This document shows positions 941 to 1,122 of a stretch of DNA of 1,950 nt, piece after piece (position 1 is the first letter of the stretch; every line of letters starts with the position of its first letter). Both the position numbers and the translations under genes were made by a program. Below the pieces are notes generated by a model. It worked only from the letters and a program-made list of their open reading frames with translations. It was not told where the DNA came from and ran no database searches. Source of the DNA: Escherichia coli (GTDB taxonomy: Bacteria > Pseudomonadota > Gammaproteobacteria > Enterobacterales > Enterobacteriaceae). The DNA lies in the NCBI RefSeq assembly GCF_003334385.1, contig NZ_QOWN01000106.1, one strand, 5' to 3'.

Positions 941-953
941 CAGGAGTAAGCTC

Positions 954-1031
954 ATGAGAGCGGCGAGACATCAGATTTTCTTTATATATCCGATGTTGAA
1001 CTGTTTTATTTGTATACAGATAATTTTATAG
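954..1031 (+). CDS. Hypothetical 25-aa hydrophobic mini-ORF (leader peptide or small membrane peptide candidate)
   Basis: AGGAG at 942-946 is followed by a 7-nt spacer and ATG at 954. Translation: MRAARHQIFFIYPMLNCFICIQIIL, with stop TAG at 1029-1031, 10 nt before the adhesin ATG. The N-terminus is basic (R2, R5, H6) and is followed by about 19 hydrophobic residues. The ORF is short and sits in AT-rich DNA, so it could be a chance ORF. Confidence 0.3.
   Translation: MRAARHQIFFIYPMLNCFICIQIIL
996..1024 (+). promoter_or_regulatory. Candidate sigma-70 promoter for the adhesin gene: TTGAAC-N17-GATAAT
   Basis: The -35 element TTGAAC (996-1001) matches consensus at 4/6. The spacer is exactly 17 nt (1002-1018). 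The -10 element GATAAT (1019-1024) matches at 5/6. The predicted start near 1031 would leave only a ~10-nt leader. AT-rich DNA produces many such matches. Confidence 0.35.
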
Positions 1032-1041
1032 GGTATACCAC

Positions 1042-1122
1042 ATGAGCAAGAAATTTACAAAGACTATTCTTTCATCTGCTGTTGCCGGTCTGTTGTTGGT
1101 GAGTGGTGGGGTTGTTGCGGCA
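1042..1122 (+). other. Sec-type signal peptide of the adhesin
   Basis: The n-region has K3, K4 and K7. The h-region is ILSSAVAGLLLVSGGVV. A small-residue cleavage motif gives VVA|A or VAA|N, i.e. after residue 26 or 27. Confidence 0.8.

Follow-up and report, generated by a model that had tools for sequence, protein, structure and literature searches.

Leader open reading frames (ORFs) that are conserved, required and controlled by antisense RNA are known from tap/repA of R1 and repY/repZ of ColIb-P9. The present analysis concerns positions 942-1044 of a 1,950-nucleotide (nt) stretch of Escherichia coli lambdoid prophage DNA (contig NZ_QOWN01000106.1; this whole stretch is hereafter the window), where a 25-codon mini-ORF runs up to the start of an eib gene for an immunoglobulin-binding adhesin. 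As in tap/repA and repY/repZ, a leader ORF of ~24-29 codons ends beside the start of a gene with a structured ribosome-binding region, and its translation would open the downstream structure. Unlike in those systems, the eib mini-ORF is missing from most homologous leaders and no antisense RNA is evident. We think it probable, with considerable room for doubt, that the eib genes carried by prophages share a conserved, structured mRNA leader, the core of which is 942-1044; that in this leader a closing stem (P1) around a long hairpin (hairpin 2) masks the adhesin ribosome-binding region; and that the mini-ORF is a lineage-specific by-product of it.

A second group of relatives is formed by the 5' untranslated regions (UTRs) that mask a Shine-Dalgarno (SD) sequence, such as fourU, ROSE, lcrF and prfA. 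Like these, the eib leader has an upstream pyrimidine-rich strand that is predicted to pair with the SD sequence or AUG of a surface or virulence gene, and as with RNA thermometers its product can be temperature-dependent (EibG; PMC4352079). However, the eib leader lacks the fourU and ROSE motifs, its closing stem is built around a long hairpin, and in silico its pairing stays the same between 20 and 42 °C. A simple RNA thermometer was rejected because the pairing is predicted not to melt between these temperatures.

The locus is that of the prophage "moron" eib cassettes of P-EibA, P-EibC, P-EibD and P-EibE (Sandt & Hill; AF151091, AF151674-6). In these records a stem-loop is the only element annotated, and hairpin 2, the closing stem and the mini-ORF are not; nor did we find in the searchable literature a description of an eib 5' UTR, of hairpin 2, of the closing stem or of the mini-ORF. 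What appears to be new here is hairpin 2 together with the closing stem as a candidate cis-regulatory leader of eib, stem-loop 1 being the only part annotated in those GenBank records.

The comparison draws on sequences upstream of eib-like genes, ~60 of them distinct, that were taken from complete E. coli genomes, phage records, IMG/VR and metagenomes. They fall into seven leader types: A (the window and EibA), B (phage GER2), C, D, E (EibC, EibD and eibG), F and G. Three blocks are common to all seven (GGAAU, a CAUCAGAUUUUCUUUA-like block and UUUGUAUACA(R)A), and every type has an adhesin SD sequence of AGGA, AGGG or GAGGA at 8-9 nt before the start codon.

Hairpin 2 (958-1006, plus strand) is present in all seven types. 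In the window it consists of a lower stem (958-963/1001-1006), an upper stem (967-976/988-997) and a U-rich loop (977-987). When the sequences are folded one by one, each leader type folds the same region into this long hairpin despite differing arm sequences, which are GCCGAAAUACAUCAGAU / AUCUGAUGUAUUUCGG in type D, GGCAACG..GUGUCAG / CUGACAC..CGUUGC in type C, and GCGGCC / GGUUGC, with G-U pairs, in type B. MAFFT and RNAalifold, applied to a 21-sequence leader alignment, recovered only a small GUAUAC hairpin and misaligned the co-varying arms. For this reason 22 distinct sequences were registered to the structure by hand in an N-padded alignment, and partners slid by 1-3 columns served as the control. 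Under this registration 82.4 % of cells are paired, against 34-48 % in the slid-partner controls, and 13 of 19 pairs show changes on both sides, against 1-5. The covariation score of 0.398 compares with at most 0.114 in the slid controls and was reached by none of 500 shuffles. The structure of hairpin 2 is conserved and co-varying among eib leaders, and its many G-U pairs imply that it belongs to the plus-strand RNA.

The second component is the closing stem, which is predicted to join the translation initiation region of the adhesin (TIR; the SD sequence and start codon) to a segment 5' of hairpin 2 (the anti-TIR). In the window, both the minimum free energy (MFE) and the centroid folds pair GCUCAUG at 950-956, which contains the mini-ORF AUG, with CAUGAGC at 1041-1047, which includes the adhesin start codon (both plus strand). 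The two AUGs lie in one predicted 7-bp helix, and the pairing probability of the adhesin AUG is 0.99-1.00. The window leader (895-1062) folds at -40.7 kcal/mol (z = -4.08) into stem-loop 1, a single-stranded linker with the AGGAG of the mini-ORF, P1, hairpin 2 and the small GUAUAC hairpin. In this predicted structure the mini-ORF crosses the 5' strand of P1, hairpin 2 and the small hairpin, called P4, and the adhesin ribosome-binding region is paired.

The type A anti-TIR pairs with the adhesin AUG itself, and those of types C, D and E pair with the SD region; MFE folds of all types pair one or the other. In types C and E the helix is long and leaves the start codon out. The anti-TIR and TIR strands differ between types and match within them: AUAUCCUG / CAGGAUAU in type E, UCCUCAUG / CAUGAGGA in type D and AUACCCU / AGGGUAU in type C. 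Cognate combinations pair at -13.2 kcal/mol, against -9.5 kcal/mol for non-cognate ones, and 5 of 5040 permutations are as good. In types C, D and E the anti-TIR is the best partner of the TIR in 330 nt of upstream sequence, with none of 227 non-overlapping windows as good; the corresponding share of windows is 2 % in type G, 11 % in A, 20 % in B and 21 % in F. Pairing of the TIR with an upstream strand, backed by covariation, has good support across the family and weak support in the window's own type.

We propose that the leader has four parts, namely the anti-TIR segment, hairpin 2, a short hairpin on the invariant UUUGUAUACA block and the adhesin TIR. In an RNA that we infer to be transcribed from upstream of ~940, the anti-TIR would pair with the TIR (GCUCAUG with CAUGAGC in the window; AUAUCCUG, UCCUCAUG or AUACCCU with the SD sequence elsewhere), enclosing hairpin 2 and masking the adhesin ribosome-binding region. 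Masking would lower translation of the adhesin until some trigger opened the mask, the candidates being temperature, IbrAB, a ribosome or a small RNA (sRNA). The mini-ORF would be a by-product, because its ATG lies in the anti-TIR strand, its SD sequence is a variant of GGAAU, and its U-rich codons give hydrophobic residues. Its frame would be open by chance through this U-rich sequence, from which the hydrophobicity of the peptide would follow.

Several points weigh against this proposal. Hand registration inflates the paired fraction of hairpin 2, a bias that the slid-partner control removes only in part. The type A closing stem has only 7 bp (z = -1.2; 11-13 % of controls are as good), and closing-stem complementarity taken alone is likewise unexceptional in types B, F and G. 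An ATG stands at the same place in five of the seven types, with GGA(A/G) 8-12 nt upstream, and the mini-ORF, if transcribed, is likely translated to some extent, given its strong SD sequence in a segment predicted to be single-stranded. If transcription started at a promoter-like site at 996-1024, structure and ORF alike would be left outside the mRNA. Finally, in none of the seven types does the predicted pairing of the SD sequence or AUG change between 20 and 42 °C, and the lack of predicted melting leaves the trigger for opening unexplained.

An earlier note on the window had described a well-initiated hydrophobic ORF terminating just before an adhesin start codon with almost no SD sequence, and that observation is confirmed, with all its coordinates, except in one point. 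The AGGAG at 942-946 lies inside the predicted single-stranded linker (941-949) and is followed, after a 7-nt spacer, by an ATG at 954 that opens 25 codons (MRAARHQIFFIYPMLNCFICIQIIL) and a TAG stop at 1029-1031 (954-1031, plus strand). The TAG ends 10 nt before the adhesin ATG at 1042, and this ATG is the start annotated by RefSeq in the 98.6 % identical SCU-104 genome. The AGGG at 1030-1033 and the GCTC-ATGA-GAGC palindrome at 950-961 are also as the note gave them. The claim of almost no SD sequence, however, was overstated. The AGGG, a weak SD sequence that overlaps the stop of the mini-ORF and matches in position the AGGA or GAGGA of other types, stands 8 nt before the ATG and pairs with the 16S tail at -3.9 kcal/mol, practically the value (-4.1 kcal/mol) for the AGGA that occupies this position in the expressed EibC/EibD-type leaders.

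The AGGAG of the mini-ORF pairs with the 16S tail at -6.9 kcal/mol. The window contains one AGGAG-N7-ATG where 0.04 would be expected, and 7 of 200 shuffles contain one or more, so that the pairing of SD sequence and ATG is moderately unusual. The length of the ORF is ordinary, as the note itself had allowed in saying that a 25-codon ORF could arise by chance: the probability of 24 sense codons at this base composition is 0.17, and 26 % of the ATGs in the spacer upstream of the adhesin gene open ORFs of at least 25 codons. Frame +2 across the same span is stop-free as well.

A comparison of the leader types shows no conservation of the mini-ORF as a coding unit. In type A it encodes 25 amino acids, or 30 in four copies in which a T insertion removes the TAG and the ORF ends instead at a TGA that overlaps the adhesin ATG (ATGA). 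Type C also has 25 amino acids (MKGNEVSVFLMYSDTRCSVCIQIIS), in a peptide that is unrelated to that of type A and is not hydrophobic. Types D and F have 22 and 17 amino acids, type G is reduced to ATG-TAA, type E retains an ATG plus 3 codons in some leaders and no ATG at all in EibC, EibD and the eibG of JNEC-KY208, and the type B counterpart has no ATG. The stop lies 10 nt from the adhesin start in types A and C, 18 nt in D and 32 nt in F. Hydropathy in the best 18-residue window is 2.22 in type A, against 1.1 in C, 1.1 in D and -0.05 in F. When presence, frame and variation were compared upstream of eib-like genes, as the note had proposed, the ORF was absent or reduced in types B, E and G while the adhesin remained intact; the note had named such an outcome as refuting its idea, and at the level of the family it applies. 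EibC, EibD and EibG are known to be expressed, although the leaders of EibC, EibD and eibG (JNEC-KY208) have no mini-ORF.

In every type, hairpin 2 is preceded at 16-17 nt by a conserved (N)GGAAU motif and at 63-64 nt by GTAAG (both distances counted by hand in the window). Because the spacing from GTAAG is constant, the AGGAG is the type A positional version of the conserved (N)GGAAU motif. On the same spacing we rejected the idea that a 12-nt insertion in types A and B gave rise to the AGGAG.

Variation within type A was followed in 47 copies, 96-100 % identical to one another. The mini-ORF is uninterrupted in all 47, and its substitutions comprise seven non-synonymous and three synonymous changes; in two copies (L141 and L166) the AGGAG has become AAGAG. 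The intact ORF carries little weight because copies this similar make the type too uniform for testing selection. Three of the changes, C964U, C991U and A1000G (A4V, P13L and N16S in the peptide), each add a base pair to hairpin 2 and stabilize it by 3.5-5.4 kcal/mol. G962A turns a G-U into an A-U pair with slight stabilization (-0.7 kcal/mol), and G960A and G1019A, of the same G-U to A-U kind, are energetically neutral (+0.01 and +0.16). The mean change in folding energy is -0.72 kcal/mol for the observed variants, against +0.82 kcal/mol for all possible single changes over the ORF span (Mann-Whitney p = 0.07 for all changes and 0.025 for transitions only, on small numbers). These data are suggestive of polymorphism that tracks RNA pairing rather than codons. 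We find no coding constraint on the mini-ORF, which we regard as specific to its lineage.

Against this background we considered whether the mini-ORF is nevertheless translated in type A as a translational activator of the adhesin, by coupling or unmasking, a reading that we hold to be the less likely account. A ribosome would load at the AGGAG, open P1 and thereby free the adhesin AUG, melt hairpin 2 and stop at UAG 1029-1031, from where it would re-initiate or allow direct entry at the adhesin AUG 10 nt further on, in the logic of tap/repA and repY/repZ. The strong SD sequence in its single-stranded linker would suit such loading, as would the placement of both AUGs in the same helix and the overlap of the mini-ORF stop with the adhesin SD sequence. 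The ORF is intact in all 47 type A copies, and even the T-insertion variant stays open and ends in an overlap with the adhesin start. Types C, D and F likewise have an ATG in this position whose ORF crosses hairpin 2, and a masking predicted to be temperature-insensitive calls for an active opener. However, the ORF is absent from type B and from the expressed EibC, EibD and eibG, and has 0-3 codons in type G and some of type E, so the activator reading cannot be general and is at best lineage-specific. Neither the peptide nor its length nor the stop position is conserved, the ratio of non-synonymous to synonymous changes is 7:3, the AGGAG is lost in two copies, frame +2 is equally open, and the near-identity of the type A copies limits what their intact ORFs can say. 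The coupling that the earlier note had suggested could thus still operate in type A, but the start, frame and stop that it would use are not conserved across types. The note's broader idea of a structured, regulatory leader, with an adhesin start that depends on upstream sequence, appears to be right, but the conserved and co-varying part of this leader is the RNA structure, not the peptide.

A more far-reaching variant, which we regard as doubtful, is that the eib leader represents an undescribed class of cis-regulatory RNA, specific to the Eib/YadA-like adhesins of E. coli prophages, in which a ribosome loading at a conserved upstream GGAR-N8-12-AUG site opens the mask. Lineages would differ in what follows at that site: a complete leader ORF in some, three codons in others, and in others again a start codon directly followed by a stop. 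If this were true, translation status or temperature would gate the synthesis of the adhesin, and the control of Eib proteins by static growth and between 23 °C and 37 °C would be accounted for.

The earlier note had also compared the peptide with type I toxins and other small membrane peptides. Like Ibs, ShoB, TisB, Ldr and Hok, the mini-ORF is small, encodes a basic N-terminus followed by a hydrophobic stretch (an 18-residue window with a mean Kyte-Doolittle hydropathy of 2.22) and lies in a structured leader. Unlike these, its peptide is not conserved and matches no family, an antisense partner is not evident, and the mini-ORF lacks its own terminator and runs straight into the adhesin gene. 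The hydrophobicity is limited to a single leader type and is a consequence of its U-rich RNA, the peptides of homologous leaders being unrelated or absent. The mini-ORF peptides have no match in Pfam, NCBIfam or PHROG (E-value cut-offs 10, 10 and 0.1), their exact sequences have never been called as a protein among ~15 billion sequences, and an Rfam scan of the whole window at E <= 1 returned no family. A consensus scan, weak as evidence of absence, found no minus-strand promoter overlapping 900-1100. Amino-acid changes in the peptide are tolerated and track RNA pairing. In our judgment it is scarcely credible that the product of the mini-ORF has an independent function, be it as a type I toxin-like peptide or as another small membrane peptide, and the identification as a type I toxin was rejected on the non-conserved peptide, the restriction of hydrophobicity to type A and the absence of a match to Pfam, NCBIfam and PHROG families or to Rfam toxin-leader and antitoxin families.

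Hairpin 2 followed by a U-rich UUUGU block could in principle be an intrinsic terminator or attenuator placed before the adhesin gene, with read-through by phage late antitermination or, as in pyrL, by a ribosome that translates the leader ORF while closely following the polymerase. Like pyrL and trpL, the eib leader has an ORF that passes through a hairpin and then a U-rich tract upstream of a regulated gene. U-rich tails follow hairpin 2 in types A, B, C, D and G (for example GGUUGC-UUUUUUU in B, UUUGUUUGU in D and UUGUUUUUG in G), and the adhesin gene follows the late tail-fibre operon and is read in the same direction. Nonetheless, the U-tract is inconsistent between types, being weak in E and absent from F, and the long stem is irregular and carries a loop of 11 nt; a terminator scan called hairpin 2 in no type scanned. 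In further contrast to pyrL and trpL, the eib leader has neither runs of regulatory codons nor an alternative antiterminator pairing, and the covariation includes sequence downstream of the hairpin: the co-varying closing stem needs that sequence and makes sense only in a full-length RNA. We consider termination or attenuation unlikely.

A last alternative would make both the mini-ORF and hairpin 2 irrelevant to adhesin translation. If TTGAAC-17-GATAAT at 996-1024 (plus strand), a sigma-70-like match inside the mini-ORF, were the eib promoter, the mRNA would begin at ~1031, and the mini-ORF and hairpin 2 would belong to the DNA level or to an upstream transcript. In a consensus scan this match is the sole one on the plus strand of the spacer, and its GATAAT overlaps the conserved GTATACAGATAAT block. 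Against it, the window holds three promoter-like sites where shuffles lead one to expect 4.0, only type A has the -35 element, and a consensus scan of types B, C, D and E found no counterpart of the site and no conserved site. Moreover, the G-U-rich covariation of hairpin 2 and that between SD and anti-SD strands imply an RNA that extends from ~-100 to the start codon. The 996-1024 match is probably not the eib promoter, and we hold this alternative to be quite improbable.

The remaining elements of the leader are less uniform in their distribution. Stem-loop 1 (899-940, plus strand) appears in the MFE fold as a 13-bp stem (899-911/928-940) with a 16-nt loop, and the P-EibA record AF151091 annotates a stem_loop at the equivalent of window 901-938 (locus L001, 2041-2078). 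As a conserved element it was rejected, being present in types A and D and variable or absent in the others. P4 (1007-1022, plus strand) is a small hairpin on the near-invariant TTTGTATACA(R)A block, with the palindrome TGTATACA at 1010-1017. Among 134 loci compared, the motif block at 1008-1022 (TTTGTATACAGATAA) lies ~22-33 nt before the start codon in those of the E. coli eib type. It is found in no locus of another genus (L089-L121, relatives by the YadA anchor), and L076 has one apparently unrelated occurrence. No covariation was seen in this block, which may act as a -10 region, as a protein or operator site, or through the P4 hairpin.

Two further observations touch hairpin 2. Its conserved, U-rich loop at 977-987 (UUUUCUUUAU) is complementary to the run of Lys codons, AAGAAA, that follows the adhesin start (1048-1053), and the two could form a loop-TIR pseudoknot. 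Farther upstream, 710-729 (CATCAGATTGTGCTGATGTA) contains a small hairpin like the upper stem of hairpin 2 (CATCAGAT...ATCCGATG), and a second GTATAC palindrome occurs at 801-806 (within 796-810); together these may be a degenerate upstream copy of the leader motifs.

The window as a whole matches chromosomal prophages of E. coli, best that of strain SCU-104 (98.6 % identity across 1950/1950 bases), followed by phage PhiR5_2 at 97.4 % and the P-EibA record AF151091 at 92.4 %. On the RefSeq annotation of the SCU-104 locus and that of PhiR5_2, positions 1-234 (plus strand) are the 3' end of a prophage tail-fibre-assembly gene (DUF4376). A non-coding spacer of ~800 nt (235-1041, from the SCU-104 and phage annotations) separates this gene from the 5' part of the EibA-type gene at 1042-1950 (plus strand), which encodes a YadA-like trimeric autotransporter adhesin with the signal peptide MSKKFTKTILSSAVAGLLLVSGGVVAA.... 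When contigs from one genome per species were scanned, the hits were confined to distant relatives by the YadA anchor, all of them in other genera and without the leader motif.

The spacer has features of its own. Three terminator-like hairpins with T-runs lie on the minus strand at 242-259, 371-388 and 538-559, the window holding five terminator-like sites where 1.4 are expected, and an exact 16-nt direct repeat (ATACAGAATTTTCGTA) occurs at 462-477 and 639-654, with a spacing of 177 nt. PhiR5_2 carries two annotated 49-amino-acid hypothetical coding sequences on the minus strand in this region of hairpins and repeat. This arrangement resembles a tandem series of small genes or sRNAs, encoded on the minus strand between eib and the tail-fibre-assembly gene.

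The eib leader appears to travel with some independence from the rest of the gene. Type A leaders (L065, L066, L071, L077, L087, L130, L131 and others) precede adhesins that differ in the ends of their signal peptides and in their passenger domains, and in one locus (L199) a type B leader is fused to a type E ribosome-binding region. To judge from these arrangements, leader and first codons seem to behave as a recombination module separate from the passenger domain. Other eib-type genes stand with their leaders outside the tail-fibre context, either beside insertion sequences, IS21-like ISEc12 in L008 and IS66-like ISCro1 in L123, or downstream of genes for giant LPD5/LPD38 proteins (L122, L128 and L129), and in each of these loci ~350 nt of upstream sequence is kept.

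In commensal and Shiga-toxigenic E. coli alike, Eib adhesins bring about binding of immunoglobulins, resistance to serum and a chain-like adherence, and their expression is strongly conditional, depending on temperature, static growth and IbrAB. In static growth, EibG cannot be detected at 23 °C but reaches high levels at 37 °C, and eibG mRNA is ~3-fold more abundant in static than in agitated culture, temperatures not having been compared at the mRNA level (PMC4352079). From a plasmid, 168 bp of native eibG upstream sequence supports expression and complementation (PMC13534694), and this sequence has no mini-ORF.

As the eib leader illustrates, a structured, U-rich RNA can give rise, as a by-product, to a mini-ORF that is hydrophobic and well-initiated, and for annotation this means that such mini-ORFs need comparative support before they are called small proteins or toxins. 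For the eib family, a leader RNA that masks the TIR would provide a concrete post-transcriptional element for the conditional expression of these adhesins, one that is testable by mutation.

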